Source of the DNA: Thermoplasmatota archaeon
Lineage (GTDB): Archaea; Thermoplasmatota; Penumbrarchaeia; Penumbrarchaeales; Penumbrarchaeaceae
Length of the DNA: 64,000 bases
Direction of reading: 5' to 3'
Assembly: GCA_029762535.1 (NCBI GenBank)
Contig: JARVGK010000002.1
Location: forward strand, 73,603-137,602
Shown: positions 4,636 to 21,803 of the stretch, in pieces
How the letters are laid out: each line of letters begins with the position of its first letter
How positions within the stretch are numbered: the first letter of the stretch is position 1
Translations under genes and position numbers: made by a program
The notes under the pieces: model-generated
The model's input: the letters and a program-made list of their open reading frames with translations, nothing else
What the model was told of the DNA's origin: nothing
Database searches by the model: none

Positions 4636-5271
4636 TTGTGCCACCTGGAGATGACACACATGACGAACCTTGAGAAAATGCTCATTGAGGCGGGCCGGTT
4701 CCACGGCCACATCTGCCCAGGACTGGCCATCGGAGTGGTGGCTTCTTACATTGCTCTTCGTGACGCGCGGCGTTCCGATGACGAGGAATTGGTGGCCATC
4801 GTGGAGAATGATGCTTGCGGTGTTGATGCCATTCAGCACCTCACCGGATGCACCTTCGGCAAGGGAAACCTTGTGTTTCGGGACCATGGCAAGTCCGTCT
4901 ATACATTCCTGAACCGAGCCACAGGCAAGGCCCTGCGCCTTTCTCTCGACCATTCCGCGATCGAAAGCAGCTTGCACGATCGTGAATTGTTCGAAAGCGT
5001 CCGCAATGGAACCGCAACTCCAGGGGAGATAGATGCGTTTCATGTTCGCTGGGAGGAGCGCGCCAGGGAGGTCCTTTACCGTGCTGGATCACTTTTCAAG
5101 GTCGATCAGGTGGACATTGCCTTCCCTGAGAAGGCCCGGATACATGACAATATTACTTGTGATAAGTGCAAAGAGCAAGTAATGGCCACCCGGATCGTGG
5201 AGACGGAACAGGGGCGCAAATTCTGCATACCATGCTCCGAAGAGAAAAAAGAAAAGGAGTATGGAAAATGA
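4636..5271 (+). CDS. FmdE family protein (formylmethanofuran dehydrogenase subunit E-like domain)
   Basis: The FHGHICPGLAIG motif and a C-terminal CxxC...CxxC Zn-ribbon. The start may be the Met at 4660. Its TGA overlaps the next ATG (ATGA at 5268). Confidence 0.65.
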   Translation: MCHLEMTHMTNLEKMLIEAGRFHGHICPGLAIGVVASYIALRDARRSDDEELVAIVENDACGVDAIQHLTGCTFGKGNLVFRDHGKSVYTFLNRATGKALRLSLDHSAIESSLHDRELFESVRNGTATPGEIDAFHVRWEERAREVLYRAGSLFKVDQVDIAFPEKARIHDNITCDKCKEQVMATRIVETEQGRKFCIPCSEEKKEKEYGK

Positions 5272-6362: not shown

Positions 6363-6389
6363 AATGACTGAAAACTCGGGAAGTTCCAT

Positions 6390-7469
6390 ATGACAGACCA
6401 TAACTCTTCACATAAGCCCCGAGACCCGATCGCACAGCACAGGAGGCAGAACCTCTTAAGGAGAATTTTGCTGCTGACAGGGGCCATCCTATTGGGGCTG
6501 GTGGCCATGTACGCCCTCACCCTGGGACCGTACCCGATGACCATGATCGATGTTTTCAATGCATTCATTGGTAATGGATCGGATGTCCATCGGACCGTGA
6601 TATGGAACATCCGTATGACGCGCATCGCCACCGCCATATTCGCAGGCGCCGCCCTGGCCGTTTCCGGGATGGTAATGCAGAACGTCCTTCGCAACCCCCT
6701 GGCATCACCATCGACACTGGGGGTCTCCCACGCCGCGTCCTTCGGGGCCGCCTTCGGAATCGTTGTCCTCGGCGCGGGCACCACACAGGCCCACTCAGTG
6801 TACTTCGACCACCCCTATTTATTGGCTTTATGCGCATTCGCCGCGGCCATGATTTCCACCGGAGTCATAATCCTGCTAGCGCGGATCAGGGATGCATCAC
6901 CCGAGACCATGATCCTGGCCGGCGTGGCCATGGCATCCCTGTTCACCGCAGGAACCACCTCACTTCGGTACTTCGCCAGTGATGAGGTGCAGCTATCATC
7001 CATCATATTCTGGACCTTTGGTGACCTGGGCCGGACCGATTGGACCTCTGTGTCCATCATTTCTGTGGGCACCGTAGCCACCCTCATCTACTTCTTCCTC
7101 AATCGCTGGCGATACAATGCGATCAACGGCGGAGAGGATGTAGCCCGCACCTTGGGGGTCAATACCAATCGAACCCGCATATTGGGTCTGCTTATCTCAT
7201 CCCTCCTGACCGCTCTGGTCGTCTCCTTCGTGGGCATTATCGGGTTCGTTGGTCTGGTTGTTCCTCACATCGTTCGGCGCGTGGTTGGAACAGACGCCCG
7301 CTTTCTCATCCCCGGGTGCTGTATCGCCGGTGCCCTCCTCCTTCTGGTATCCGACACCGTCGCCCGGACTATGCTCTCACCCGTCATCATGCCGGTTGGG
7401 ATCCTCACCTCATTCCTCGGGGCTCCACTTTTCATCTATCTCATCATCAGGGGGCGGAAGCATTGGTAG
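6390..7469 (+). CDS. FecCD-family ABC transporter permease (BtuC/FhuB-like)
   Basis: 359 aa, polytopic, with FecCD signature motifs. Ends at TAG. Confidence 0.8.
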   Translation: MTDHNSSHKPRDPIAQHRRQNLLRRILLLTGAILLGLVAMYALTLGPYPMTMIDVFNAFIGNGSDVHRTVIWNIRMTRIATAIFAGAALAVSGMVMQNVLRNPLASPSTLGVSHAASFGAAFGIVVLGAGTTQAHSVYFDHPYLLALCAFAAAMISTGVIILLARIRDASPETMILAGVAMASLFTAGTTSLRYFASDEVQLSSIIFWTFGDLGRTDWTSVSIISVGTVATLIYFFLNRWRYNAINGGEDVARTLGVNTNRTRILGLLISSLLTALVVSFVGIIGFVGLVVPHIVRRVVGTDARFLIPGCCIAGALLLLVSDTVARTMLSPVIMPVGILTSFLGAPLFIYLIIRGRKHW

Positions 7470-8260
7470 ATCTCGTCACCCTCGATGATGTCTCGTTCGC
7501 TTACGGGAAGATACAAGCACTGAGTGATATCACTCTTTCCTTTCGGACAGGTTCACTGGTAGGCATGATCGGTCCCAATGGATCGGGAAAGACAACCCTC
7601 ATAAGATGCGTTTGTAGGCTTGTCAGGCCCGAAAATGGAACCGTGACGATCAATGGCAGGGACCTCTCATCACTGAACAGTCTTGATCTGGCCCGCATGG
7701 TGGGGTATGTGCCCCAGATGCAGGAGAAGGCCTTTCCAGTGCCTATATTCGAAGCTGTTCTTGCGGGGCGCATACCTCATCTGGGATGGGCTCCTTCGGA
7801 CCATGATCTTGCCATAGTCAAAAACGTCCTGGAACTCATGGACCTGGAAGATATCTCCCAGAGGAACATCAACACACTCAGTGGGGGACAGATGCAGCGC
7901 GTACAAATCGCCCGCGCCCTGGCCCAGGAACCCCTGGTATTGTGCCTTGATGAGCCCACCAGCAATCTGGACATCAAGCATCAACTGGGGCTCATGCGCA
8001 TGGTACGAGATCTGACCCGGAAAAGAAAGATGCTGGCCCTCATGGCCATCCACGACCTAAACCTGGCATCTCAGTACTGTGACCGATTGGTCCTCCTCCA
8101 GAACGGTGAGGTCTTTTCCTCGGGAACACCACAGGAGGTCCTGACCCGGAAGAACGTCAGGAACGCATTCAATATCAACGTGGCCATTCACACCCACGGC
8201 GATCTGATACACATCGTGCCCGTGGAGAACACTGATCTCAGGAGGCTTGAACATACCTGA
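7463..8260 (+). CDS. ABC transporter ATP-binding protein (FecE/BtuD-like)
   Basis: Walker A GPNGSGKTTL, signature LSGGQMQRV, Walker B LVLCLDEPTS. The ORF track extends it 5' to 7040, but that part overlaps the permease in another frame. The start is probably TTG or GTG near 7463 and overlaps the permease stop. Confidence 0.75.
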   Translation: MVDLVTLDDVSFAYGKIQALSDITLSFRTGSLVGMIGPNGSGKTTLIRCVCRLVRPENGTVTINGRDLSSLNSLDLARMVGYVPQMQEKAFPVPIFEAVLAGRIPHLGWAPSDHDLAIVKNVLELMDLEDISQRNINTLSGGQMQRVQIARALAQEPLVLCLDEPTSNLDIKHQLGLMRMVRDLTRKRKMLALMAIHDLNLASQYCDRLVLLQNGEVFSSGTPQEVLTRKNVRNAFNINVAIHTHGDLIHIVPVENTDLRRLEHT

Positions 8261-8279
8261 ATCTTCTGGCAACCCGGTC

Positions 8280-8525
8280 CAAGGATGGAGTGGGTGCCAC
8301 CCTCGAAGATCCATGGCCGTGGGTTATCCGATCCGAACGGAGTGATCCATTAGGATAACGGGTGGGGACATGCGACGTTGCCGAAGGCAATGTCCCCCTG
8401 GGCGCAGCGGCCCGCAGGGGCGCGGAGGCGTGTCCGCAAGTTAGACAACCCGAGAGAAGCGAGAGCGCAGTGTGGTCGTGCACCGCATCCGAAGGCGAGG
8501 AGCGCAGAAGTTTCTAATTCTCCTG
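8280..8525. repeat. structured repeat element (island family)
   Basis: Carries GGTTATCCGATCCGAACGGAGTGATCCATTAGGATAACGG, the stem GGGGACAT...ATGTCCCC, and the conserved tail GCGAGAGCGCAGTGTGGTCG...GAAGTTT. Confidence 0.55.
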
Positions 8526-8559
8526 AACCACAGGGCTTGGCGTAGTTTTCAATAACCGG

Positions 8560-9942
8560 TTATGTTTCGTGAGGGGGAGTCTCATCCACCACTAACTCAT
8601 ACCAGACATTGTTCCCACCGCCCTTTTTCACAATCTTGCCTTCCCTGATAAGTTCATTCAGGTCACGGAGGGCGGTGCCTCTGTGAATAGAGAAATGATA
8701 TTCAATGTCTTCTGCCATTATTCTCTCTTTAGCTTCAATAAAGTCCATAATCCACTTCAATCGATTTCCTTTGCGTTTGTTCCGCATTTGTATCTGTTCT
8801 TTGTCCGTTCTGTGCCCGATTTCCTTCGGTTCAGCTTCGGATTTGCTTCGGATGTCACGATGGAAGACGGCACTGAAAAAAGAACCAATCTCAAAATCGA
8901 TTCCGAGATCGTACTCTTTCATCGATTTTCTCATCCTTTTAATGCCGGAGCCAGCTTTTTCCACCAGACCAAGTCTGTGAACCATGTCAGTTAAGAGAGG
9001 GTTTCTCTGAGCACTCCGTTTCCCCAGGTCTTCTTCCGGAAACAACAGCTTTCCCGGGTTCACTATTTCCACCCGCTCGGGGCTGATGTGTACCTGGATG
9101 TTCGAGGAATAGAGATAATCCCTGTGTATCATTGCGTTTATGATGGCCTCCCGCAGGGCATCTTTCGGAAGCTCCAGCTTCGCGGTATGTTTCAGGCCGT
9201 CGATGATTATGGCAGTGTTCAGCTTTGACAGAAGATAATTGTTGGCGTCGTTCAGATTGGTGGCGAAGTCTACAGAGAATTCCTTCGAGTCTATGATATC
9301 GATCTGCTCTTTATCGGCATACAGGAAGCAGGCCACCGTCGCATTGGGGAAATGTGATTTTACGTCCTTGGAAAAGAACAGAACGCCGCAGTTGTTCAGC
9401 TTTCCATTGGTCAGCAGGTTCAGGTTGCTCAGAATATGCTCTTTCGACAGGTCGCCGTCCAGCCCTGCTTCCTTCCGGAATCTGGCAAACGCGTCTTCTG
9501 AGAAATCCCGGTCTTTGAAATCAATGGTGTTTCTCTCGAAGGAGATGAGGTTCTCCTTCTGGAACAGTTCCCTAATCTCGTCCCTGTTCAGCTACTGGGA
9601 ATTGGCGCCGTACCTCAGATAGAAGTGGCCGTTCACGGTGTAGGGCTTGTCCTTCCCTTCCGAGACGTATATCACCACCATATCTCTAACCTGCTCGATC
9701 CGGGCATTGAAGGCGGGGTTCATGTTCCTGGCGATGTCTTGGATCTTCGACCTGTCGGAATTGGTCAGCTTGTAGCCTTTTATATCACCGGTCCTATCCT
9801 CAACACCGATTATTATCTTACCGCCGGAGGAGTTGGCAAAAGCACAGATGTCCTTTTCGATGGTACTGCTCAGCGACTCCTTCAGCTCGATGGTGTAGCC
9901 CTCACCGGTTTTCACGACATCAACAAGTTCTTCGTAGTTCAT
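8560..9942 (-). CDS. AlbA_2 (Schlafen-like DNA-binding) + HATPase_c_4 protein, interrupted by one in-frame TAG at 9592-9594
   Basis: ORFs 9592..9942 (AlbA_2-type N-terminus) and 8560..9336 (HATPase_c_4-type C-terminus) are in the same frame (9594-9336 = 258 = 86x3). Manual read-through gives ...GANSQ*LNRDEIRELFQKENLIS... with no other disruption. Confidence 0.6.
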
Positions 9943-10076
9943 ATCTCAACCCCGAGTTGTTCTTCCATCATGATCTCGAACTGCCTTGAGATTAGCAACC
10001 CCTTCTTCTTGCAATGCTCTTTGTATTTGTCGTATAGATCGGAATCCACGCTCAAAGTGACGTTTCTTGACGGCAT
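9939..10076 (-). CDS. ribbon-helix-helix (CopG/Arc-like) small regulator, 45 aa
   Basis: Manual translation: MPSRNVTLSVDSDLYDKYKEHCKKKGLLISRQFEIMMEEQLGVEI. Its TGA overlaps the ATG of the downstream AlbA gene (ATGA). It lies below the 60-aa ORF-track cutoff. Confidence 0.6.
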   Translation of the reverse strand: MPSRNVTLSVDSDLYDKYKEHCKKKGLLISRQFEIMMEEQLGVEI

Positions 10077-10107
10077 GTTATCACATTCACAGGTAAATGT
10101 CTGCATT

Positions 10108-10120
10108 GTTATTTAAATGT
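10108..10120 (-). promoter_or_regulatory. putative archaeal TATA box for the RHH-AlbA operon
   Basis: Minus-strand ATTTAAATA about 35-40 nt upstream of the RHH ATG. Confidence 0.3.
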
Positions 10121-10304
10121 GTATGATCCGTAACCCACCCTCACTCCGGTTATTGAAAATTTAAATCGAGAGTTAGCGAGCCATTTAATGTGTGTTATGC
10201 CTGGTTGCGTAGCAACCGAGTATCTGTTTCTTCTGGTGTTTCGTTAAACGAAGCCAAGCCCGTTTCTGGTGGTTCAGGTTCCACGATTAAAAGGAGGGGA
10301 AAAT

Positions 10305-10480
10305 TAGGATTTTCGGATAACGGACGCGGCTAACCGAAGTTCGTGGGGAGAAGGTGCTTTAGCACCCGAAGCCTTAAAATGAGGTCGAGGCTTCGGTTCC
10401 GAAAATCATCCTGCCGCCGTAGTTTTTTCTTGCTCTGTTTTTATTCATCTTTTCGTTATCCGTCGTGGGGGGTGTTCCGG
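10305..10480. repeat. structured repeat element (island family)
   Basis: Begins TTCGGATAACGGACGCGG. Hairpin GAAGGTGCTTTAGCACCC. Ends with the conserved tail CCGTAGTTTTTTCTTGCTCTGTTTTTATTCATC...GTGGGGGGTGTTCCGG. Confidence 0.5.
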
Positions 10481-10662
10481 TATTCTCTATTCTGCTTGTT
10501 TTTTTCCAAAATGCCTCAATACTCGTATGCTTCATATAATCTCCCAGCGTCCTTCCTTTCGACCGCCCGTGCGTCTGAGCAAACCATCGGATTGCAGTTT
10601 TTGGATGTTTCGTTCTATTGATCGTTCAGTAACTCCTATAAGAGAAGCCAGTTCAGGAATTG

Positions 10663-11940
10663 TTATTGTGTCGTTCTTTTCGATCTCCTGCAATATCTTT
10701 CCTGACGTTTTTCCAACGCTTTCCCGACGCTTTCTCTGGCGATTCCTGTATATAAAAGCGGAATCGCGGTAGTGAATACCGGTCCATCCATATACTTTGG
10801 AACGCCGTCGGGCGTGTAATGAGGTAGATACTTCCCGATATTCATCATCCCGGATCCAATTTCTTCCACCCAGCTCAGTTGTGCAAAGAACTTTGCAATA
10901 ACGGGATTCTTGGAGAAGGGCACCACTTTTTCGGGGTCAAGGACTCCCTCGACCCTGTAGTTGCTTGCGTTAGTGGTTTCTACACGATCTTTGTAAATTA
11001 TCAATCGGGCTGGATGGGCGTTCATGTATTCGCGATGCACCAGAAAATTAGCAATAACTTCCCGGAATATCTTATCGCGTAGACTTATCCTAGCGTCTCC
11101 TTCCAGGTAAAATGGGTCTGGAAGATGTTTGGCAATAAAGGCCATGAGCCGGTCGTATGCTTCAATGAGATTGCAATCTATACGGTCGCGGTCGTCATAA
11201 TGGTCCATCTGAACCCGGCGAACCATGGCATCGATCTTGTAATGAGGTAAAACACTCCGTATGGTCTCGTCTTTTCCCAGTAGCAGGATGGCAGCAAGGG
11301 TATAGCCCTCATTCCCGGTTTCCTGATCCTTTCTGAAAAGCCCGGCCTTGAGCAACAGCTGCTCATCGTCCAATTCTCTCCACGGATGATTCGGTCCACG
11401 GGTTAATATGAGATTACGAAGCCTGGGCAGCATGTCCAAACGCAAATCGTCAAGAGTTGTGGCAGAATAAATTATGTTCTCGGTGTATGTCGCCCGCTTC
11501 CGGTTACTAATCTCCGCGATCCGGTGGGGCTGGGTCACACGGAAATCGCCATCATTGCTTCGGTCGAAGACAACACCGTTGGTTTTATGCACCTAGGAAC
11601 TAGCAGGCACTGAAATATGCATGATCTTCTTTCCATCAAGAACATGTATAACGGGATGGAGGATGAACGGCGGATCCAGCTTTTGAGTATTATTGGAAAG
11701 ATTGACCATATCTGTTTTCATCTTATCGATGGATTGCGGATCGATTCCCAATACCCTTCCTTGATCATCAACTCCGAGAAGAATGTCTCCTCCGTCCCGG
11801 TTCAGCATTGCACATATTGTTTCGAATAAACTCGTGGGAAGAGATTTTCTTGCTTCCTTGTATTCTACCCGGATACCCTCGCCCATTGCAAGCAGATGTT
11901 TAAGGCGAATTTGCATCGGGTCACTTTGCATTTTTCTCAT
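10663..11940 (-). CDS. AlbA_2 + HATPase_c_4 protein (paralog), interrupted by an in-frame TAG at 11593-11595 that is immediately followed by GTG
   Basis: ORF 11593..11940 ends ...HISVPASS. It is followed by TAG, then in frame by GTG CAT AAA (VHKTNGVVFDRS...), which continues ORF 10663..11592. Confidence 0.6.
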
Positions 11941-12070
11941 CCTCTTTCATCTGTTCTTCCATCATGATCTCGAACTGTCTTGATATGAGCCAACCTTTCC
12001 TTTTACAGTAATCTCTGTATTTATTATAGAGATTTTCATCGAACCTTAAAGTAACGTTCTTTGAAGGCAT
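11921..12070 (-). CDS. ribbon-helix-helix small regulator, 49 aa (paralog)
   Basis: MPSKNVTLRFDENLYNKYRDYCKRKGWLISRQFEIMMEEQMKEDEKNAK. Overlaps the start of AlbA gene 2 by 20 nt. Confidence 0.55.
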   Translation of the reverse strand: MPSKNVTLRFDENLYNKYRDYCKRKGWLISRQFEIMMEEQMKEDEKNAK

Positions 12071-12101
12071 TTTAATCACTCACTGCACATACTTACAAAT
12101 G

Positions 12102-12112
12102 CATATAAATGC
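12102..12112 (-). promoter_or_regulatory. putative TATA box for the second RHH-AlbA operon
   Basis: Minus-strand TTTATAT about 30 nt upstream of the RHH ATG. Confidence 0.3.
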
Positions 12113-12139
12113 ATCATTTTTGTTATATGACACCCCCCC

Positions 12140-12445
12140 CACGCCCGTTGAGCAAGAAAAATTTGGGTGAGCGGAGCGAACCATTTAACCGGTGTTATAC
12201 TGGGTTGCGAAGCAATCTGGCACATGTCGTTATTCTCTTTTCGTGTGGGTTAAACGAAGGCGGCAGGAATAGATGATTTTCGCTTGTCTGGCCAATGCCG
12301 GGAGACGAAAAATTTCATTTAACGGACGCGACTATGCGAAGTTGCGTAGCGAAGCGGAGCAATTTGGGTCGAGCGAAGTGCAACGAGCGAGCCGTATAGT
12401 CGCGAGTTATCCGATCCGAGCTATGCGAGGATGAGCATCTTTGAT
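12140..12445. repeat. structured repeat elements (two units)
   Basis: 12150-12200 carries AAATTTGGGTGAGCGGAGCGAACC. 12290-12440 carries TTTAACGGACGCGACTATGCGAAGT...AATTTGGGTCGAGCGAAGTGCAACGAGCGAGCCGTATAGTCGCGAGTTATCCG. About 100 nt are near-identical to the 13185-13290 copy. Confidence 0.65.
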
Positions 12446-12458
12446 GCGAACGTCGGGT

Positions 12459-12881
12459 TCAGTGGTTTTTATTAGCTATATTAAAGAGTTCTTTCGTCGA
12501 GAATCTCTTTAATTTGTCCTGTCTATCAAAATCCTTATCTTCAGTCCATATCCCACTTGCCTTAACCGCCAAACCTAAAGCTAGAAAGGGCGTATCTTTA
12601 ATATCGATATCTTTCATGATTTCTTCAGCGAGTTCAAGATGATCTATGAATACATCCGATGGAATCAATTCGATTCTCTCGAGAATTGATAATAATATGA
12701 TGTCAAATTCTCTATCGGTTAACTTTGATTTTTCGATTAGGTAATGTCGATATTTTTCTATCTCTGTTATTACGTAATCTGGAGCAATAAAATTGAACTC
12801 CTCATTGAAGATGATCTTTCTTGTTTGTGAATCTTTGATCAATCCAGCCATGATTCTATTTGAATCTATGACCATCTTCAT
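12459..12881 (-). CDS. PIN-domain protein (VapC-like toxin)
   Basis: 140 aa. Begins MKMVIDSNRIMAG, with the first PIN Asp in the D-S-N context, plus later acidic residues. Overlaps the antitoxin gene by 4 nt. Confidence 0.6.
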   Translation of the reverse strand: MKMVIDSNRIMAGLIKDSQTRKIIFNEEFNFIAPDYVITEIEKYRHYLIEKSKLTDREFDIILLSILERIELIPSDVFIDHLELAEEIMKDIDIKDTPFLALGLAVKASGIWTEDKDFDRQDKLKRFSTKELFNIANKNH

Positions 12882-13111
12882 GCGGATTGCTTCCTTTTGT
12901 AATGTTTGTAGATGCCTTCTTTGACCTTTTCATCGAGAGCCATGACTTCTTCTTCAGTCAGTTCGCTCTCTTGAGTCAAAGAGTCAAGCAATGCCAACTT
13001 CTTTGCATAATCGGATATTGCCCTTCTAGCAATCTCGCTCCATCTGATCTCGCTGTGTTGTTTCATGATCACATGAATATCTGAAGGTACCGATAGGGTT
13101 ATGTTGGGCAT
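12878..13111 (-). CDS. antitoxin-like small protein (partner of PIN toxin)
   Basis: 77 aa, immediately upstream of and overlapping the PIN gene. The N-terminus MPNITLSVPSDIHVIMKQ is beta-strand like. Confidence 0.5.
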   Translation of the reverse strand: MPNITLSVPSDIHVIMKQHSEIRWSEIARRAISDYAKKLALLDSLTQESELTEEEVMALDEKVKEGIYKHYKRKQSA

Positions 13112-13184
13112 ATGATTACCACACAGGCATATGTGATATCACATATTTATTAATTGCCGTAACCACTGAACCCGATGTCGGATA

Positions 13185-13345
13185 ACGGACGCGACTATGC
13201 GAAGTTGCGTAGCGAAGCGGAGCAATTTGGGTCGAGCGAAGTGCAACGAGCGAGCCGTATGAGCGCGAGTTAAGTTCCCCGAGCCGAAGTTATCCGTAAG
13301 GATAACGTAGGCGAGAGCGCAGCGTGGTCCGGAGTTATCGAAGAT
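13185..13345. repeat. structured repeat element
   Basis: GGATAACGGACGCGACTATGCGAAGT...AATTTGGGTCGAGCG...CCGTATGAGCGCGAGTTAAGT. Followed by GAAGTTATCCGTAAGGATAACG and the tail GGCGAGAGCGCAGCGTGGTCCGGAGTTATCGAAGATAACG. Confidence 0.65.
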
Positions 13346-13370
13346 AACGACGGAAGTTGACCAGGATCAA

Positions 13371-13541
13371 TTAAGAAAACAATATCAAATATACAATGAA
13401 TATCAGTATTATACTAAGGAGAATATAAAAGGGAATACTCTTGCCTTTTTTTGCTAAATAGATTAATAACCCTATAATAGCAAGGATAAATGAAAGAAGA
13501 CAACATCCCGGAATTAATAAAAAATATGTTGGCATTCCCAT
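13371..13541 (-). CDS. small hydrophobic protein, 56 aa, two predicted TM segments
   Basis: Manual translation: MGMPTYFLLIPGCCLLSFILAIIGLLIYLAKKGKSIPFYILLSIILIFIVYLILFS. GGAG lies 8 nt upstream of the ATG. It sits in an AT-rich slot between two repeat elements. Confidence 0.35.
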   Translation of the reverse strand: MGMPTYFLLIPGCCLLSFILAIIGLLIYLAKKGKSIPFYILLSIILIFIVYLILFS

Positions 13542-13571
13542 TAATATTCTCCTGTAAAAATGCTGGTCAAT

Positions 13572-13740
13572 TGAACTTAACGGACGCGACTATGCGAAGT
13601 TTGCGAACGTAGTGAGCAAATTTGGGTGAGGGGCGGGCCGAGCCCCGAACCGCATAGTGGCGTGTTATTCGCCCCGAGCCGTAGGCGAGAGCGCAGCGTG
13701 GTCCGAAGTTATCCGAAGGATAACGAAGGAAGTTGAGGGG
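13572..13740. repeat. structured repeat element
   Basis: CTTAACGGACGCGACTATGCGAAGT...AAATTTGGGTGAGGGGCGGGCCGAGCCCCGAACCGCATAGTGGCGTGTTAT. The tail is GGCGAGAGCGCAGCGTGGTCCGAAGTTATCCGAAGGATAACGAAGGAAGTTGA. Confidence 0.65.
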
Positions 13741-13742
13741 GT

Positions 13743-14141
13743 CTAATGCCCGGATAAGAATTCGGAAGATTGAATGATCCTCACGCTATCATATTGCTTG
13801 ATCTTCAGTAAATGATTATCTCCCGAAATGATATATTCAGCCTTTCCTAAAATTGCTGTTTCCAAGACCATGTTATCCTTTGGATCATCTTCGATGACAT
13901 ATAGAGAATCTGTTATGAAAACGAGATCAGACATCAAGATCAAACTTTGAATGAAAGCATGGATCTTATCATCCGGGACATGGAACTTTTTTCGAAGAAC
14001 CATCTCAGTTTCTGAAAGAATCTGTTCGGAGGTGACAGATCTTATTTTTCCTGACTTGCATCTTGTCAATAATGACCTTTCATTCCCATTCCAGAAAAAG
14101 CCAGAGATGAGAATGTTCGAATCAAGGACTATCCGGACCAA
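13743..14141 (-). CDS. PIN-domain protein (VapC-like toxin)
   Basis: 132 aa. MVRIVLDSNILISG is a classic PIN N-terminus. Ends at TAG. Confidence 0.6.
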   Translation of the reverse strand: MVRIVLDSNILISGFFWNGNERSLLTRCKSGKIRSVTSEQILSETEMVLRKKFHVPDDKIHAFIQSLILMSDLVFITDSLYVIEDDPKDNMVLETAILGKAEYIISGDNHLLKIKQYDSVRIIQSSEFLSGH

Positions 14142-14144
14142 AGA

Positions 14145-14429
14145 TCAATTCTCCTTGGATCTGATTTCCTTTATTGCTTTAAGTACATCTGATTTCTTTA
14201 ACATCTTCTCCTTGGCGAAATCACTTCCCCAATGGAGAAGATTTTGGAAATCCTCATCGGTGGGGATGTCGATCTTTTTCAGGACTATCGTTTCGTTCTC
14301 TCCATACATGGCAAAGAACTCACCGGGTTTGAATCCGAGGAGTTCGCGAAGGTCTTTCGGTATCACGATCTGCCCTTTGGAGGAGAGCCTTGTGATGGTT
14401 ACTTCGGACATGGTAATAAGTAAGACCAT
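14145..14429 (-). CDS. AbrB/MazE/SpoVT-family antitoxin
   Basis: 94 aa. The swapped-hairpin motif is SSKGQIVIPKDLRELLGFKPGE. Directly upstream of the PIN gene. Confidence 0.6.
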   Translation of the reverse strand: MVLLITMSEVTITRLSSKGQIVIPKDLRELLGFKPGEFFAMYGENETIVLKKIDIPTDEDFQNLLHWGSDFAKEKMLKKSDVLKAIKEIRSKEN

Positions 14430-14469
14430 CTTACTATTTCATTTTTTCGGGTACTTGTAGACGATCACA

Positions 14470-14715
14470 TTAAACCCCCGAAATTGCGAATAACGTCCTG
14501 GGGATATGGGAAGTTGGCCGAAGGCCAATTTGGGTGAAGGGTCTGCAAGACCCGTAACCTCATATCCCCATGTTATCTTCCCCGAGCGATAGCGAGAGTG
14601 CAACGGGGTCGAGGCACGAAGTGCCGAAGAAGTTTGAAACCCTGCCGTAAATTCCGTTGTTGCCGTAGTTTTTTCTTACTCTATTCATCGTTCACGTTCT
14701 CCGTGGGGGTGTTCC
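14470..14715. repeat. structured repeat element
   Basis: Stem TCCTGGGGATATGGGAAGT...CCTCATATCCCCATGTTAT. Apex CCAATTTGGGTGAAGGGTCTGCAAGACCCGTAACC. Conserved tail ...CCGTAGTTTTTTCTTACTCTATTCATCGTTCACGTTCTCCGTGGGGGTGTTCCG. Confidence 0.6.
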
Positions 14716-14720
14716 GTTTA

Positions 14721-17318
14721 TCATGCTTTCAACTCTAATTTTTCATTAAATGCTCCAATGAAATTTGTTTTCAGATCTTCATTGTAGAATGGAAGCCCGA
14801 TAATTTTGTATTTCGTATTTTCTGCCAGTATCTCGATTTGATAATTTCCTTCAATGTTTGTTAGGAATTGCTGTTTCCAGTCATCTTTTTCAAGTAAGTG
14901 ACTTCCTTTCGGTTCGATGAAAACCTGGTAATAGAGAATTTGTTTGGTTTTTTTCTCTTTTAAGAATAGGACAAAATCTGGTTCAAGAGAATTTCCATCT
15001 GAAAAGCGATAAAGCTGGAAAATTTTCTGGTTTCTAAGTAGATATATATCTGAATATCTTTTTTGTAATTTATCAATTGCATCGTTTATGAATCTTACAA
15101 AGTATTTCTCTTCTGATGTTCCATAATTTTCTTCATATACATACCAGTCCTTGTTTTTTAGGTCTAATCGTAAATCTAGTTTTAGAGTTTCACTCATCCC
15201 AATACCGATTTCTTTGTCAGATGTGTCATTTACTGCGATATTGATTATTTTGTCTTCTACTAAATCTTTAATTTTGCTTGCTTTGAATAATATAGTCCCG
15301 ACATATTCAGTATAACCAGATTCGATATTGCTTTGAAGTTTCTTCAAAACCTCTGTACATATTTCCAGTTTATCATCACAATTGAGTGAATCTAATTTTG
15401 TAATTGAAGTCGTTACCTCTACCTGAACATCTTTTAAAGCTTCAATGAACTTGCTGATAGATTTTGATTTAGGGAAATATTTTTTCAGGTTATTAAATTT
15501 GTAAAAATCCAACCTGGTTAGAGATTTTCGCATAATTTGAATTCCGAAGTCGTTCAGTTTAAAAATCTTTGATCTTTTCTCTTCAACATCTTTCTTCTTT
15601 TCCCCGTTGAATATAGTAGAATCTCTAACATATCCTGTTCTGAGACCAATTTTATACAATTTATCGATGTCCAAATCTGATATATCCTTGATTTTAGTTC
15701 TATCTGATTTTTTCTTTTCGTTGATGAATATCAGGCCATTAGACCAAAAATCTGATTTCTTAAACCCATCTTTGACTTTCAAATGGATTTCTCGCTTTTC
15801 CGGTGGCATGATGCCAGATTCCACCAAAGCTGTAGTCAATTCTTGAATGTATCTTGGGTTATGGGCACTGTGGTAATAAAGCTCTTCAAGAATTTTCAAC
15901 TCGTTGTTTGGTTCCTCATCGTATTTTCTCTTGAATCGCTCCTGTTCATCTGTTATTGTGAAAGGAAAATATCTAGCGCCTCTCCCGATAAGTTGGGCTT
16001 CTGCGATGGTCGTTTTACCAGGCTTCCCTGCTTTTGCATCTCTAGTATCATAAAGTCTTACAATGTCAAATAGATTGAGAACATCCCAACCTTCGTTAAG
16101 CATACCGACTGCAAAAACAACCCGAATTTCGTTATCTTTATCCTCAAGCGAATTAACTAGTAACTGTTTCTTTTCACTCTCACTTTTAGAATTGACTGAT
16201 AAACACTTATTCTCATGAAATTCTTCTTTAATCTCTGATACCAAATTCTCCAATGTAATGTCATTTTCTTCAAAATAATTAAAAGCCGTATTAAGAATCG
16301 ATTTTTGTTCAACATTGTTTTTTATTTTTGATATGTCGCTAATTTTCAAGGATTTGATCTTTTTCTTAAATTCATCTTCAATAGTGGTAGATTCATCAAT
16401 GGTTCTGGATTTCAACAGGATTACTGGCTTAATAAATTTCTTATGCTTTTCTGCAATCTTTCGTCTATATTGACTTAGGATGACTGACTGTAATGTCCTT
16501 TCTATTGGCTTTAAATCTGCCTCCATCACTTTGACTTCCTTTGAATACCCGTCTAATCTAAACTGTTTTAATGAGTAATCATAGATTATTTTACTATCGT
16601 ATTTATCTCTAATTGCTGGATGACTCAAATCAACGGTGGCGGTATACTCCAGCATGATATTTCCCAGGTTTGAATTGAAGATATTATTTACGGTATGTTC
16701 CCAGGTAGTTTTGGCTAATTTTTCTTCCTTACCCAATTTATTCTTTGTCCAAGCATTGATATGGTGGGCTTCATCGGAAATGATTACGATTTTTTTATCC
16801 TTGAAGTCCTCGTAAGTCATGCTGTTCTCGCGCGGGGTATTCATGAAACAGTGAAGCCCCTGGATTGTGGTAAAATGGATATTGATCGCATCAGGGTTAG
16901 CACCCTCGAAATTTTCTACCGGACTAATGAAAACCTCTTTTTCTCCAAATTTTATGTGTTCGTTGAACAGATATTTTGATGAAAGTAGATTTAAGAAATT
17001 ATCTTTAGTCTTTTCTATGATGTTGGTACTATTCACAAAGAAAAGAAAATTCCGATAACCTTTCTCATAAAGATAGAGAATATTGGCGGCCATCAATAAT
17101 GTTTTTCCGCTTCCAGTGGCCATGTGAAACAGCAATTGCGTTGGTTTGATTCTCCTTTTATCTTTTTCATAATTATAAATGAATCTGCGTATAGCTTCCA
17201 GTTGATATTCTCTCAATTCAAACAAATGATTCAGATTATTTGTAATATTGTCTGGAATCTCAGTACCCAGCAAGCCCTGTTCTGAAAGAACATCATACGT
17301 TTCCTTCAAAGTGGGCAT
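14721..17318 (-). CDS. Type III restriction-modification system restriction subunit (Res; SF2 helicase-nuclease)
   Basis: 865 aa. Helicase motifs LREYQ..., MATGSGKT, VISDEAHH. Positioned immediately downstream of the mod gene, with only a 1-nt gap. Confidence 0.7.
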   Translation of the reverse strand: MPTLKETYDVLSEQGLLGTEIPDNITNNLNHLFELREYQLEAIRRFIYNYEKDKRRIKPTQLLFHMATGSGKTLLMAANILYLYEKGYRNFLFFVNSTNIIEKTKDNFLNLLSSKYLFNEHIKFGEKEVFISPVENFEGANPDAINIHFTTIQGLHCFMNTPRENSMTYEDFKDKKIVIISDEAHHINAWTKNKLGKEEKLAKTTWEHTVNNIFNSNLGNIMLEYTATVDLSHPAIRDKYDSKIIYDYSLKQFRLDGYSKEVKVMEADLKPIERTLQSVILSQYRRKIAEKHKKFIKPVILLKSRTIDESTTIEDEFKKKIKSLKISDISKIKNNVEQKSILNTAFNYFEENDITLENLVSEIKEEFHENKCLSVNSKSESEKKQLLVNSLEDKDNEIRVVFAVGMLNEGWDVLNLFDIVRLYDTRDAKAGKPGKTTIAEAQLIGRGARYFPFTITDEQERFKRKYDEEPNNELKILEELYYHSAHNPRYIQELTTALVESGIMPPEKREIHLKVKDGFKKSDFWSNGLIFINEKKKSDRTKIKDISDLDIDKLYKIGLRTGYVRDSTIFNGEKKKDVEEKRSKIFKLNDFGIQIMRKSLTRLDFYKFNNLKKYFPKSKSISKFIEALKDVQVEVTTSITKLDSLNCDDKLEICTEVLKKLQSNIESGYTEYVGTILFKASKIKDLVEDKIINIAVNDTSDKEIGIGMSETLKLDLRLDLKNKDWYVYEENYGTSEEKYFVRFINDAIDKLQKRYSDIYLLRNQKIFQLYRFSDGNSLEPDFVLFLKEKKTKQILYYQVFIEPKGSHLLEKDDWKQQFLTNIEGNYQIEILAENTKYKIIGLPFYNEDLKTNFIGAFNEKLELKA

Positions 17319-17319
17319 G

Positions 17320-19326
17320 TTATAACACTCCGTAGAAGCGTTTGTTTATTTCTTTGTCCTCGTCTGATACGCCATAATCCTCGTCATCAATTTCGTTGAA
17401 ATTAACATAAAGCTGATTTTTATCCAGACACTCAATTAGGAATGCCTTTTGGTTCTCCAAGTCCAAGTCCTTGAAATCTTGAGCATTTTCATCGAATTGC
17501 TTCGGATCTATTCTGTAACTAAGGAAAGCTTCTTTTTTCATCTTATCCCATATTGCCAATAAATCTTTTATTGTCTTTGCTTCTTGAATTTTATCCATAT
17601 AGGATTCATTCCATTTCATCAGTTCACAATAAATAAATTCACCACCACCTTCCCACTTTACATATTTTGAGATACCAGATTGATCATAATTTTCAATTTT
17701 CTCTATTAATTTACCCTTTGAGTTTGCATTTCCGATAACATTTTTTAATCTCATAAGCGAATCATTTTTACCATAATCCAATTGTTCTATGCCGAGATAT
17801 TTTCTACCCAACTTATGCGCAACTGCACATGTTGTACCACTACCTAAGAAGAAATCCAAAACAATATCTCCCTTATCAGTTCCCATTTCAATTATTCTCC
17901 TTAAAAGTTTTTCTGGTTTTTTACCACGTTTTAATTTAACATTACCTTCATTAGCAATTCCTTCCCAAGGTATATCCGTCCATATATTTGATAATAAATT
18001 TGTTGGAACGAGATTACCATCAATGTTTCTAACCTTGTTATTATAAAAAGTAATTTCTTTTCCATTTAAGATATATCTATCAGTTAAATTATCTCTTCGA
18101 TTAACAAATACTTTATCCAGATTCTTCAAAGATTCTTCCTTTATGTCTAATGTTTCCTTTCCAGCATCAATGTTTATTTCTGTAAATCGAAAGACTCTTT
18201 CCTTATTATTCAAGGCATAGTCCGCTAATTCAGATAAAGTACGATTTGTTCCTAATTCTTTTTTTAAATATCGACTATTTTTAACCTTAAACTTTTCCGC
18301 AATAATATCTTTAATATTTGAATAAGTCCAATTTGATGGGTTTTCTTCAATATTGTCTATCTGAAATGAATAATTTTCATCATAATTAGTTTCTTCGTAT
18401 TGAGTGATGTACTTCCACAACTTTTTAGACTTTGCATAAATTAATATATATTCGGCACTTTCAAAAACTCCCAAATTTACAGTTTTAAAACCAGACGGAG
18501 ATCGAGTTTTTATACTAATAAGATTAATGAAATTATTATCAAATATTTCATCTAGTAATATTCTTAATCTGGATACATGAATGTCGCTAATTTGAATGAA
18601 AATGGCCCCATCCTTACATAGTAATTCTCGTGCAATTTCTAATCTGTTTTTCATAAATGTAAGCCATGTTGAGTAGTTAAAACTATCATTATACTGAAAC
18701 TCATCATTCCCTGTATTGTAGGGAGGGTCAATGTAAATTAATTTAATTTTTCCAGCATATCTTTTTTTCAATGAATGCAAAGCAAGGAGATTATTACCTT
18801 TAATCATGATATTATCTGTTGTTTTAATTTCTTCTATGTTATGCTCTCCTTTTGCATCAATCCGTTTTAAACCAGTCAATACTTTAGGATCGAATAATCT
18901 GTCAATCTCATCAGGAGCAAGAATTTCATTCCAAAATATTTCTTTGCGATTTTTTTCTTCGGGATCTTCCATTCCGCCTTCCAAAACGCAATCTTTGTAT
19001 GGCCAGGATAGAACCACTTCACTACTTTTTGTTAGGTATTCGTTTTGTGTTGTAAGTCCAATCTTGTTTTTGAAAGTGGTGTACGAATCTGGTAAGAATT
19101 CTTTGTTATCAACGAATTTCATGAATTTTTCTTTGTCAAAAATGATTGCTTTATTTACAATTTTAAAGAAATGCACTTTTAATTTTTCGTTTTCAAGAAG
19201 GAGGGAAATCAGCTCATCATCGAGTTTAAGACCAAGTTCGATTATTTTATTTTTCAATAATTTATCATCTGAAACTAAACGTTCATCCTTTTTTAATGTG
19301 TCAATCATTTCATCAATTAACGTCAT
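17320..19326 (-). CDS. Type III R-M DNA methyltransferase (Mod; beta-class N6-adenine/N4-cytosine MTase)
   Basis: 668 aa. Catalytic motif IV IDPPYNTGND precedes motif I FFLGSGTT, the beta-class order typical of Type III Mod. Its start overlaps the upstream ATPase stop (ATGA). Confidence 0.7.
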   Translation of the reverse strand: MTLIDEMIDTLKKDERLVSDDKLLKNKIIELGLKLDDELISLLLENEKLKVHFFKIVNKAIIFDKEKFMKFVDNKEFLPDSYTTFKNKIGLTTQNEYLTKSSEVVLSWPYKDCVLEGGMEDPEEKNRKEIFWNEILAPDEIDRLFDPKVLTGLKRIDAKGEHNIEEIKTTDNIMIKGNNLLALHSLKKRYAGKIKLIYIDPPYNTGNDEFQYNDSFNYSTWLTFMKNRLEIARELLCKDGAIFIQISDIHVSRLRILLDEIFDNNFINLISIKTRSPSGFKTVNLGVFESAEYILIYAKSKKLWKYITQYEETNYDENYSFQIDNIEENPSNWTYSNIKDIIAEKFKVKNSRYLKKELGTNRTLSELADYALNNKERVFRFTEINIDAGKETLDIKEESLKNLDKVFVNRRDNLTDRYILNGKEITFYNNKVRNIDGNLVPTNLLSNIWTDIPWEGIANEGNVKLKRGKKPEKLLRRIIEMGTDKGDIVLDFFLGSGTTCAVAHKLGRKYLGIEQLDYGKNDSLMRLKNVIGNANSKGKLIEKIENYDQSGISKYVKWEGGGEFIYCELMKWNESYMDKIQEAKTIKDLLAIWDKMKKEAFLSYRIDPKQFDENAQDFKDLDLENQKAFLIECLDKNQLYVNFNEIDDEDYGVSDEDKEINKRFYGVL

Positions 19327-21803
19327 TTCTTTTCCTCCTTATTATTCGAAATTAAATTCCAGTTTACGCTTCCACAATTACATCTTACGCCACTTTGTTT
19401 CATTCCATCTGCTGTAATTTTCAATATACCACCACAACTATGACATGAAAAGAGATAATATAAATCTTGAAATGCCTCTTTTATAGGTCGAAAGTCTTTA
19501 TCACTAAAGTTTATCCAATTATTAAAATGAACGTTTGCATTAATTCCCCATTGTTCAGCATATGTGCGTTTATAAATGCTAGAACGCATTGAATCTAATT
19601 CTTCAAATTTTGCCGTCTTTTCTGATTTTTCCCAGGAAACTGATGATTTTTTAGCCTTTTTAATTAAGTCCTTATATCCATCCATTAATGGTATTGTAAA
19701 ATCACCAAGATCTAGCTGGCCGTTTAATTTGTATCGTACTCGTATCTGTAATGAATCACACACTAGCCCAAAATACTCTTCCAAACCGCGTCTTAATCTC
19801 GAAGCAGCAGAAGGAACATCGTTTCTTGTCAAATCTTCTTCAATTTTACTCCAGAGGTCTGCTTGAAGATTTACTTGAGGCCCTGTATCAACTTTCCAAT
19901 TATAGAATTCAACCATGCAACTCTTATTATCAACAACTCCTTCACTTCTCATTTGATTAGCCCATGTCTTATCATGGGTTGTGATTAAAAATTGTCTGTT
20001 TGGGAAATTTGATGCAAGCACGCGACAAATATCTCGCCTATGATTCGAATCCACAGACATTATTACATCATCTAAGATAATGAGGTCAATAAGACCTTCT
20101 GCCAAACGTTCAGATAGAGCCAAATATAAACAAAGCCCCATACTATCTTGATGACCTTCACTGTGGAGGGCTTGTGGAGAAAAAGCCCCTCGGCCATAAA
20201 AATCAACTTCAAATTTTAATGCCGCCCCATCTGGTGAAATAGTCGCGGAAAAATCTTTTTCGTCTGAACCATGTAATTCTTTATATAATTGCACAAAGCG
20301 ATCATTTACATCTTTGTAAAGATTTCCCAATATAGTATCTCTGGAATATTCAAATGTATTTAACAATATCTCTGCTTTTTTATATGAGATACTTGCGTTT
20401 TTAAAATCATTTTTTGCTTTTTCAAGACCTTTTAAATTTTCTTCAAGGCGTGTTAATGTATCCCACGCAGTTTGTTCAGGGGTTATCGGTGGCGCTTTGG
20501 TTTTAACAATTTCTATTAGAGTTTGAAGATTTTGTTTAATTTCCTCAGAAATAAGCATGTGTTTTACTCTGTCGCTATCAAATTCGATCAATGGATATTT
20601 TTCGAGTGGATTAGCTAATGCTATGGATAACTGATTCAAATCTGACGAACATGTTTTCAATTGGATGCTCCATTCCTTTTCCTCAATTTTATTTAATACC
20701 TCAATTATTTTATTTATGCTTCCTCTTGTATTGTTCACACGCTTTGATATGGAATCGGACAAAGATGTAATTCTGTTTCTTTGTTGTGATATTTCTTCAA
20801 TATCAGTCAATTTTGAGGTAAGATATTCATCTAATTTACCGCTTGGCCACTGTGTATCACACAATGGGCAGTTACCCGTGTCATCGATCATAGATTTTCC
20901 AAGTTCAATTAATTGAAATCGATTGTATGTTTTCAATAATTTCGGATTCGATTTTATAGAGTTTAGAAGATTTCTAAGTTCTTTATCAAATTCAATGATT
21001 CCTTTTTGATTCTTTTCGTCAAAGGAATTATGAATATTTTGAATATCTTTTTCAAATATAGTAAGATTGACATGATTGTCGTTGATAATACTGGTAGGTG
21101 GCGTAAGGGCCTTTTTTAACGTATCTGAAGAAACCGAATTCAATTCATTACTTTTTAATGTTTTACGTAATTGATTTACGTAATCCAGTAGCATCTTTTC
21201 ATTAAATGATGTTGTTTGAATTGTTGCGTTAACCTCACCTTTTTTCTCATCTATTGCTTCTTCTTTTGTCTGCTTTTCTCTTTTAAAAGTATTTTCAATA
21301 TTTACAAATGCTTTTCTTATTATTTCAATGTCTGATATATTTAATAATGCTTGAATCTCCTGGGCACGTGTACTACCATCAGAGGTAATATATTTTAAAA
21401 TTTCTCGTCTTGTTAATACATGTTCTCCCCTCGATGCAAGGGATAAAATGGGTTCAAGATTAGGTAAATATTTTTCATCAGATACAACTAACTTAGTGGG
21501 TTGTGCCATATCTCTTTTTATTTCAATAGGAACATTAATTTTTGGAAATTGAATAACTGCACGTACAATAGCATCTTTTGGCTTGTGATCAATATGTGGG
21601 CCACATTCTTTCAATTTGATATTGCGAGTTCCCTCTCCCTTTAAACGAGAAATTCGACCTGTTAAGAGGAAATCAATGGCATCAACAACAGCACTTTTCC
21701 CTGAACCATTTGGCCCCCATATTACTATATTTTTTCCTTGGGGCGTTAGTTTTATATGGGTTATACCCCGCACATTTTCAATTTCAAGCTCAATCAGTTT
21801 CAA
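19323..21803 (-). CDS. SMC/RecF-like ABC ATPase with long coiled-coil insert and C-terminal Zn-ribbon
   Basis: 826 aa. Walker A GPNGSGKSAVVDAI. Signature-like SEGHQDSMGL. Walker B LIILDDV. H-loop TTHD. C-terminal CHSCGG...RCNCG. Confidence 0.65.
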   Translation of the reverse strand: MKLIELEIENVRGITHIKLTPQGKNIVIWGPNGSGKSAVVDAIDFLLTGRISRLKGEGTRNIKLKECGPHIDHKPKDAIVRAVIQFPKINVPIEIKRDMAQPTKLVVSDEKYLPNLEPILSLASRGEHVLTRREILKYITSDGSTRAQEIQALLNISDIEIIRKAFVNIENTFKREKQTKEEAIDEKKGEVNATIQTTSFNEKMLLDYVNQLRKTLKSNELNSVSSDTLKKALTPPTSIINDNHVNLTIFEKDIQNIHNSFDEKNQKGIIEFDKELRNLLNSIKSNPKLLKTYNRFQLIELGKSMIDDTGNCPLCDTQWPSGKLDEYLTSKLTDIEEISQQRNRITSLSDSISKRVNNTRGSINKIIEVLNKIEEKEWSIQLKTCSSDLNQLSIALANPLEKYPLIEFDSDRVKHMLISEEIKQNLQTLIEIVKTKAPPITPEQTAWDTLTRLEENLKGLEKAKNDFKNASISYKKAEILLNTFEYSRDTILGNLYKDVNDRFVQLYKELHGSDEKDFSATISPDGAALKFEVDFYGRGAFSPQALHSEGHQDSMGLCLYLALSERLAEGLIDLIILDDVIMSVDSNHRRDICRVLASNFPNRQFLITTHDKTWANQMRSEGVVDNKSCMVEFYNWKVDTGPQVNLQADLWSKIEEDLTRNDVPSAASRLRRGLEEYFGLVCDSLQIRVRYKLNGQLDLGDFTIPLMDGYKDLIKKAKKSSVSWEKSEKTAKFEELDSMRSSIYKRTYAEQWGINANVHFNNWINFSDKDFRPIKEAFQDLYYLFSCHSCGGILKITADGMKQSGVRCNCGSVNWNLISNNKEEKK

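Follow-up and report, generated by a model that had tools for sequence, protein, structure and literature searches.

A stretch of 64,000 nucleotides from a Thermoplasmatota archaeon (contig JARVGK010000002.1, positions 73,603 to 137,602 of the forward strand; hereafter the window) carries many copies of a structured repeat, and the question that this locus raises is what these repeats are. The original prediction had left them as either DNA recombination sites or RNAs. In this study, we will argue that the first half of this alternative holds, considering the match between the ends of neighbouring sites, the positions at which homology stops between related contigs, the geometry of the recombinase gene and the open reading frames (ORFs) found on the opposite strand, and that an RNA is disfavoured. 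It is very likely that the repeats are attC-type sites, lying between the mobile cassettes of a chromosomal integron-like gene-capture platform, the recombination of which we infer from the sequence. This system works like an integron, yet it fails two of the defining features, namely the domain specific to the IntI integrases and the extrahelical bases of the attC sites. Both the integron-like identity and the atypical integrase had gone unnoticed in the original prediction.

The window has eight occurrences of the motif ATTTGGGT, which all lie on the + strand between 3694 and 22244, when 3.0 are expected and one of 100 shuffles reaches eight; the 12-mer AATTTGGGTSAG is found four times in the window with at most one mismatch. 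We trained a covariance model, R1, on 52 members of the family (3 from the window and 49 from other contigs), and this model, run with its filters off, recovers seven full + strand copies in the window, from 4237 to 22512 (Table 1). The end hexamers of one of them, at 8349-8451, agree with those of no neighbour, and a half copy at 10313-10400 is not reported by R1 at E<=10. A self-BLAST of the first 28 kb recovered the direct repeats and missed the short inverted ones. The direct-repeat families link the ten intervals in which the repeat family had been described, and R1 copies lie inside seven of these, while the intervals 10305-10480, 12150-12200 and 22200-22330 hold real but partial copies. 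The same comparison gives 97% identity over 90 nt between 12320-12409 and the site at 13176-13280, which are the two long copies that had rightly been called near-identical.

Each copy takes the form of a three-way junction of single-stranded DNA, according to DNA folding and to the helices supported by the alignment. A site begins with xxxxxxAAC, followed by a bulge of 3-5 nt (GGA in the window and GTT in many relatives) and by a covarying main stem of 11-12 bp, the outer 6-7 bp of which are variable, while the inner part is TATGCG/CGCATA. The first hairpin, which opens with AAGTT and closes with AATTT, is followed by an unpaired GG and by a second hairpin (GTGRRG-hairpin-GAAC, opened by GT-GA and closed by GA-AC). 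After the CGCATA return strand that completes the stem, a single unpaired base precedes GTT, and six variable bases close the site. The AAC and GTT ends are invariant or nearly so, and four helices are backed by covariation. The architecture quoted in the original prediction is all present in the sequence, with its four stem pairs and its three apical hairpins; AATTTGGGTGAG, however, had been placed at the apex and sits instead at the junction between the two hairpins.

The claim that the covariation reflects selection on the structure is well borne out. In A1, an alignment of 52 sequences, the covariation score amounts to 0.346 and does not exceed 0.078 in controls in which the partners were slid by 1-3 columns, and none of 500 shuffles reaches 0.346; 259 cells are changed on both sides. 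In this alignment, 88.3% of the cells are paired, against 30-42% in the slid controls, a percentage which is inflated in the long stem since the members of A1 were picked for a complementarity of at least 10/12 there.

The continuous stem of 11-12 bp has none of the extrahelical bases of classical attC sites, and the constant asymmetries of the site are only the bulge of 3-5 nt that faces a single nt, a G.T pair that is invariant and the GG that is left unpaired. The G.T pair lies in AAGTT/AATTT and is found in 52 of the 52 sequences. There are more G.T pairs than A.C mismatches (131 vs 49), and CGNAG has 125 occurrences on the structured strand, against 8 on the complementary one. The first hairpin carries a triloop in 39 of the 52 sequences, 27 of these triloops being C(GNA)G, and C(GNA)G triloops are among the most stable hairpin loops of DNA and are untypical of RNA. 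The DNA fold computed for the site at 12313-12417 has an energy of -20.4 kcal/mol on the + strand vs -13.7 on the - strand. These strand-biased features, taken with the antisense position of the sites relative to the cassette genes, argue for a folded bottom strand of DNA, as in attC, and thus point to the structured strand as the bottom (non-coding) strand of the sites.

The ends of the sites follow what we will call the hexamer rule: on the + strand, the six bases after the GTT of the right end are the reverse complement of the hexamer that precedes the AAC of the next site to the right. In the window, this rule holds for five of five consecutive pairs, counting the last site and the candidate attI, while non-neighbouring end combinations have 1-5 of 9 positions in common. 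This is the classical signature of cassettes that have a circular form, in which the unit between two crossovers bears the two halves of its end box. It delimits five intact cassettes in a row, in an array that extends to the left of the candidate attI (about 27120), each cassette being made of - strand genes and then one site. The two cassettes that are nearest to attI (14721-26930) carry a defence cargo, the LmuB-like ATPase of which is of the SMC type, and TIR/ThsB, SNF2, OLD-like and restriction-modification genes are found at the same position in two relatives, L084 and L208 (related loci are designated here by L and a number). The genes of the region 1-27000, the G+C content of which is mixed and mostly low (about 55% in the remainder of the window), are nearly all on the - strand, and among them are those of PIN/AbrB and PIN toxin-antitoxin pairs as well as of AlbA_2/HATPase_c_4 proteins. 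To the left of 12313, the hexamer rule fails: site 8349 is degenerate, the copy at 10313 is truncated, and the right end of site 4237 matches the left end of site 12313 at 10/12 positions. This suggests that, in the left part of the array, several decayed cassettes have been merged into one 8-kb unit.

Two observations can be added on this left part. Between sites 4237 and 8349 (4636-8260), an FmdE-like gene and the three genes of an ABC transporter (binding protein, permease and ATPase) lie on the + strand, thus reversed within the array, with a G+C content of about 54%, and they are an odd cargo for a cassette. The region 1-4200 carries, on the - strand, small accessory genes for GNAT acetyltransferases and for glyoxalase-like, methyltransferase-like and cupin proteins with almost no spacers; apart from the fragment at 3688-3757, no sites were detected there, and this region may be an old decayed section of the array.

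On its right side, the array stops at a lone left end of a site (27115-27123), located 133 nt upstream of the recombinase start, which we consider as the candidate insertion site, attI. The relative L081 has a recombinase that is 94% identical and the same genes on the right side, and its DNA is 95.8% identical to that of the window over 1000 nt to the right of TAAC (27120), against 39% to the left of it. In L082 and L083, which are further assemblies of this relative, the first bases are exactly TAAC. On the coding strand, the sequence of this junction is GTTAAGT for the window and GTTAGGC for L081, L084 and L086, and both fit GTTRRRY, the consensus of the integron core site. In these four loci, TAAC is followed 7-8 bases on by ATGCGA (AAGCGA in L084), and motifs of the form ...AAC/TC, akin to the candidate attI, precede related recombinases. 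In the NCBI assembly of L086, a run of N at 9795-9895 starts after ...GCCTAAC and stops before CTAACTATGCTTATGCGAGG, so that this scaffold gap falls at the candidate attI or at the first site. Assemblies do break at attI or at the sites.

Natural crossover points can be read from the comparison of related contigs. In the near-identical pairs L111/L139 and L111/L146, homology stops exactly between the hexamer and AAC, and one unit is exchanged between two left-end AAC positions when L138 is compared with L181; the comparison of L098 with L172 involves a truncated site and gives no clean cassette event. From these alignments, the crossover on the structured strand appears to be at its 5' AAC, corresponding to G/TT on the coding strand. 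Each site would therefore form one unit with the genes located before it on the coding strand, as is the case in integrons.

The gene located next to the candidate attI encodes the sole recombinase found in the window, and the identical protein is listed by NCBI under a Candidatus Thermoplasmatota MAG. This protein scores 187 bits, in two stretches, against the integron integrase model TIGR02249 (cutoff 265) and 184.7 bits against the archaeal XerA model NF040815 (cutoff 220). In the alignment with VchIntIA (2a3v), its residues 166-196 lie opposite residues 173-247, and about 44 residues of the IntI-specific insertion are absent, while Pyrococcus XerA (4a8e) gives one end-to-end alignment of 128.9 bits. 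The IntI-specific domain is also absent in seven other array-linked recombinases, either archaeal (L002, L003 and L086) or from metagenomes (L128, L094, L090 and L140); against the XerA model, four of the seven score 222-244, above the cutoff, and three score 172-210, below it. The recombinase gene lies to the right of the sites and on the structured strand in the window and in L002, L003, L086, L128, L094, L090, L162, L208 and L209, and the gene of the window has a conserved housekeeping synteny on its right side.

The recombinase family of the L094 type is large (4418 proteins at E<=1e-60), which belong, according to NCBI, to Moranbacteria, Portnoybacteria, Gracilibacteria and other Patescibacteria. 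In the genomes of L208 and L209, sites and - strand defence genes are found to the left of the recombinase and housekeeping genes to its right; these Patescibacteria arrays, together with the archaeal ones, make the system span both domains. The recombinases of the type found in the Candidate Phyla Radiation (CPR), which is made of ultra-small bacteria, are 77-93% identical across proteins attributed to different CPR classes and to a few non-CPR bins; this conservation is unusual for hosts so divergent, and it suggests either horizontal spread or mis-binning. Other relatives of the recombinase, in Terriglobia (L011-L032 and L038-L050; about 40% identity), are present in more than 20 identical copies per chromosome, which suggests that they are insertion-sequence-like; no site was found at L011, the one copy searched.

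The sites themselves extend well beyond the window. A scan of metagenomes with a 20-base pattern gave at least 120 stretches, with full flanks in about 115 of 122 pattern matches, and R1 matches amount to 192 + 43 sites at 123 loci. The hosts include Thermoplasmatota and Nanoarchaeota archaea and CPR bacteria, while a scan of viral contigs gave a single match, at a contig end. At about 50 loci with multiple sites, all the sites of a contig are on one strand (as read from the match tables). The median spacing between sites is 886 bp, and 88 of 98 spacers have their longest ORF on the strand opposite to the sites. The hexamer rule is found there too, since 44 of 84 neighbouring pairs match at 6/6 and 21 at 5/6, when a 6/6 match is found for 3.9% of random pairs; within one and the same site, the two ends match at 6/6 in 9 of 131 cases. 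A looser motif pattern, applied to the first 80 genome loci, gave mostly chance matches, L002 being the only real one, and at L003, where the repeat search gave no array, R1 finds one site.

From the anatomy of the sites and the comparison with related contigs, we can propose the following mechanism. The non-coding strand of the site (bottom, here +) would fold on itself through the pairing of the end boxes xxxxxxAAC/GTTxxxxxx and of the covarying stems that end with TATGCG/CGCATA. This would form a pseudo-palindromic duplex in which the half-sites TATGCGA(A/T)G flank a variable stem of 7-8 bp, in a layout like that of an Xer/dif core. Two hairpins would branch off the conserved junction AAGTT...AATTT-GG-GTGRRG...GAAC, the first one being stacked on the stem and completing the inner arm, while the second one, together with the GG branch, may serve as a strand marker in place of the extrahelical bases. 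The asymmetry between strands could come from the bulge of 3-5 nt, from the G.T pair, which is invariant, and from the unpaired GG. Two recombinase monomers would bind the folded site, and one strand would be cut at or beside AA/C (G/TT on the coding strand). The cut strand would then be exchanged with a double-stranded attI (TAAC-N7/8-ATGCGA) or with another site, so that circular cassettes would be inserted or excised, and the product of this exchange would be resolved by replication, as established for integrons. The half-sites TATGCGA(A/T)G are reminiscent of CATAA/TTATG, the arms of dif. Among the family members used for the half-site consensus, which were collected with a pattern that fixes the L arm and leaves the right flank free, the right-flank consensus is GTTATGCGATG and the inner L arm reads TATGCGAAGTT on the 5' strand.

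The system shares many features with the known integrons, including the archaeal ones (PMC9668308): a divergent tyrosine recombinase beside attI, a unidirectional array of genes each with a site, AAC...GTT-bounded sites that fold as a single bottom strand and are homogeneous within a genome, a complementarity between the first bases of the cassette and the inner box of the site that it carries, and a cargo rich in toxin-antitoxin and defence genes. It differs from them by its recombinase, which lacks the insertion that defines IntI and that was reported to be necessary for attC recombination (PMC9668308, PMC8138268), by its stem devoid of the classical extrahelical bases, and by a conserved three-way junction, the sequences of which are invariant across domains, where integrons have a 'variable terminal structure'. 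The archaeal integrons that have been reported have an IntI with the extra domain and classical attC sites, with six integrase genes in 75 archaeal genomes (PMC9668308), and the published Thermoplasmatota attC, CCCTAACAACTCGTTCCAGCCGAC...GTTAGGT, is a classical one with no resemblance to the sites described here (PMC9668308). A survey of tyrosine recombinases described the insertion as 'not fully conserved' in an integron-like subgroup, and separated an Xer-related 'Cand' subgroup from candidate phyla, with no arrays described (PMC8138268). CPR are unmentioned in the IntegronFinder 2.0 paper. A full-text search of the literature, including motif sequences, returned no paper describing these sites, none on integrons whose integrase is devoid of the domain, and none reporting integrons in CPR bacteria; ATGCGAAGTT was found in one paper, as an unrelated CRISPR spacer.

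Xer recombinases also act on folded single strands, as XerCD do during the integration of the CTX phage, and this is the closest mechanistic precedent for an Xer-type enzyme working on such a substrate. As in Xer/dif and CTX, the recombinase is a simple one of the Xer type, devoid of accessory domain, and the half-sites are like the arms of dif; as in CTX, a single strand folded so as to mimic a dif-like core would recombine with a double-stranded chromosomal site. What differs here is that cassettes follow one another in long ordered arrays, each cassette carrying a folded site of its own, and that the junction structure is a dedicated and conserved one. The Vibrio cholerae repeats (VCR) are also attC sites of about 120 nt, near-uniform within the chromosome, with branched folds and many toxin-antitoxin cassettes, but they go along with an IntI that has the extra domain, they have extrahelical bases, and they show no sequence similarity to the present family. 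The pdif modules of Acinetobacter plasmids are likewise discrete gene modules between Xer-type sites, but these sites are unfolded 28-bp duplexes in alternating orientation, and they form no unidirectional array beside a recombinase.

This kinship with Xer leads to the explanation that competes best with the integron-like platform, improbable as we judge it: the locus would be an accumulation of elements taking advantage of the XerA/dif system of the host (of the pdif type or like integrative mobile elements exploiting Xer, IMEX), in which the recombinase would be the dimer resolvase, the 'attI' would be dif and the sites would act as duplexes. The end-to-end alignment with Pyrococcus XerA, the relatives that score above the XerA_Arch cutoff, the dif-like half-sites and the housekeeping synteny to the right of the recombinase gene all speak in its favour. 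However, covariation across 60-100 nt needs intrastrand pairing rather than a simple 28-bp duplex site, the invariant G.T pair and the CGNAG bias are strand-specific features, and the half-sites of the duplex left ends are 11-12 bp apart, which is too distant for the core of a tyrosine recombinase. This explanation also overlaps with ours, since Xer uses a folded single strand in the integration of CTX.

Several points weigh against an integron-like platform and have to be considered in the same context. The recombinase of the window scores equally against archaeal XerA and IntI, and it could be the host chromosome-dimer resolvase, adjoining the array for another reason. No R1 match is found within 10 kb of its homologues L004-L008 (36-41% identity) and L084 (59%). 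Besides the way in which the members of A1 were picked, a test anchored on sequence and run without the stem filter gives a weaker signal, with a mean of 5.2/7 for a site's own partner vs 3.9/7 for the partners of other sites. The exact position of the cleavage is unreadable from the breakpoints, AAC and the G(TT) that follows being conserved. Finally, a conserved extension of 60-100 nt beside the sites and the long inverted repeats of the large cassettes both fall outside the model.

The idea that the copies are structured RNAs, either antisense small RNAs or cis-acting 3' elements of the cassette transcripts, in which the recombination-like features would be secondary, is in our opinion more improbable still. 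A conserved three-way junction with invariant junction nucleotides, a strong covariation and an intergenic location would all suit such RNAs, but the structured strand is the antisense one in the 88 of 98 spacers mentioned above, so that the cassette mRNAs carry its weaker complement, and the C(GNA)G triloops of 27 of the 52 first hairpins are typical of DNA. In addition, Rfam gives only two tRNAs for the whole window at gathering thresholds and nothing relevant at E<=1 over 12000-14800, and both the hexamer rule and the homology breakpoints at AAC are left unexplained. Lastly, selfish miniature repeats (like miniature inverted-repeat transposable elements, repetitive extragenic palindromes or the ends of insertion sequences), spread by a transposase encoded elsewhere and piling up in a variable island, would account for the many and sometimes truncated copies, their inverted-repeat character and their abundance in metagenomes, but we give them hardly any credit, as the window has one recombinase only and no transposase, the orientation is uniform in every multi-site contig with one site per gene unit, and the matches between own ends (9/131) and between neighbours (44/84) are the reverse of what target-site duplications would give. 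Nor are the copies fragments of one known mobile element or of an insertion sequence end, an outcome that would have refuted the original prediction by its own terms.

Table 1. Features of the integron-like array and its surroundings (window positions; aa, amino acids)
Feature	Position	Strand	Remarks
Candidate attI	27113-27140		GGACTTAAC/TCCTATCATGCGATG; - strand reads GTTAAGT (GTTRRRY)
Tyrosine recombinase, Xer/IntI-like, 266 aa, divergent from array	27253-28053	+	Pfam PF00589, PF13495
Cassette 1	22400-27122 (4723 nt)	-	1365-aa TmtA-like/sacsin-like protein and site; PADLOC TmtA 5.8e-66
Cassette 2	14494-22399 (7906 nt)	-	Type III restriction-modification, LmuB-like ATPase, small ORFs; PADLOC; end hexamers GTTATCTTC
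Cassette 3	13581-14493 (913 nt)	-	AbrB/MazE-like antitoxin and PIN toxin; Pfam, NCBIfam; end hexamers GTTATTCGC
Cassette 4	13186-13580 (395 nt)	-	56-aa ORF; end hexamers GTTAAGTTC
Cassette 5	12323-13185 (863 nt)	-	77-aa ORF and PIN_2 toxin (Pfam); end hexamers GTTATCCGA
attC-like site	4237-4339	structured +, cassette-coding -	R1 55.8 bits, E 3e-14
Degenerate attC-like site, junction core gone	8349-8451	+	R1 21 bits, E 0.0015
attC-like site closing cassette 5	12313-12417	+	R1 63.1 bits
attC-like site closing cassette 4	13176-13280	+	R1 47.6 bits; direct-repeat family
attC-like site closing cassette 3	13571-13675	+	R1 81.4 bits; fold z-score -2.8
attC-like site closing cassette 2	14484-14583	+	R1 81.6 bits; fold z-score -5.2
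attC-like site closing cassette 1	22390-22512	+	R1 58.0 bits
Hexamer pair	12313 to 13176		ATCCGA
Hexamer pair	13176 to 13571		AAGTTC
Hexamer pair	13571 to 14484		ATTCGC
Hexamer pair	14484 to 22390		ATCTTC
Hexamer pair	22390 to lone left end 27115-27123		AAGTCC
Truncated copy, 5' half (GATAAC-GG-stem-AAGTT), without GTT end	10313-10400	+	Direct-repeat family; sequence TCGGATAACGGACGCGGCTAACCGAAGTT
3' half-sites (ATTTGGGT-hairpin-CC)	12150-12192, 22233-22264	+	Fused to a different AAC...GTT element
3' half-site (ATTTGGGTGAG-hairpin-GAACC) and second AAC...GTT element	12150-12262	+	Homologues 22233-22340, 10150-10256
Second AAC...GTT element (ATTTAAC...GTTAAAC, about 77 nt)	12186-12262, 22262-22340, 10183-10256		Upstream of three paralogous gene units
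Fragment	3688-3757		27 nt of it 96% identical to 12361-12387
Extension to the right of a site	13676-13742	+	CCCCGAGCC / GTAGGCGAGAGCGCAGCGTGGTC / GTTATCC-GAA-GGATAAC hairpin / GAAGGAAGTTGA; direct-repeat families

The extension separates the site from the 3' end of the cassette gene; it is rich in mini-hairpins with GAA loops and also contains GTAGGCGAGAGCGCAGYGTGGTC. Further copies are found at 13281-13350, 14584-14640, 22513-22615, 4340-4405 and 8452-8525, one copy having GCAC-GAA-GTGC in place of GTTATCC-loop-GGATAAC, and L086 has similar extensions, as do several TAACGG-subfamily members from metagenomes. We considered the GTTATCC-loop-GGATAAC hairpins and the extension as mini-sites or empty cassettes and found no support for this idea: their folds are not significant and they are outside the hexamer rule. 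The second AAC...GTT element gives a weak R1 match at 22258-22340 (11.6 bits), and no significant fold was found for 12186-12262 and its homologues.

In the units 10385-12285 and 14620-22390, the cargo is bracketed by inverted repeats of about 100 bp, respectively 10385-10485 vs 12109-12165 + 12250-12285, and 14620-14725 vs 22190-22240 + 22333-22390; a third left-hand copy lies at 4409-4480. These repeats have GGAACACCCCCCACG at their inner end, followed by AGAGYAAGAAAAAA and then by GGCRRCARC..., and the right copy is split by about 90 nt made of the 3' half-site and the second AAC...GTT element. Three inverted-repeat units are opened by paralogous small ORFs of 52-55 aa on the - strand (11921-12079, 21990-22151 and 9939-10106), with the motif ...MPSKNVTL..D..LY..Y...CKKKGWLISRQFEIMMEEQ, the products of which look, from their sequence, like ribbon-helix-helix regulators or antitoxins.

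Beyond the window, the chances seem evenly balanced that we are looking at an unrecognised lineage of the integron type, with Xer-like recombinases that either lost the IntI domain or never gained it and a universal three-way junction that mimics a dif core, which would be widespread in CPR/Patescibacteria, DPANN and Thermoplasmatota, would stockpile defence and toxin-antitoxin cassettes there, and would possibly be ancestral to the classical integrons. Integrons have been defined and searched for through the IntI-specific domain and the classical attC model, and the surveys built in this way report few integrase genes in archaea. If these arrays are functional, then much of the cassette-based gene capture of bacteria and archaea that have small genomes and live in symbiosis has been invisible so far, the extra domain is not universally required to recombine folded single-stranded sites, and the step from Xer/dif to the integron could be tested through a natural intermediate. 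The conserved site also provides a precise handle, through a covariance model and PCR targets, with which to recover the cassettes of uncultivated lineages, many of these cassettes being defence systems.

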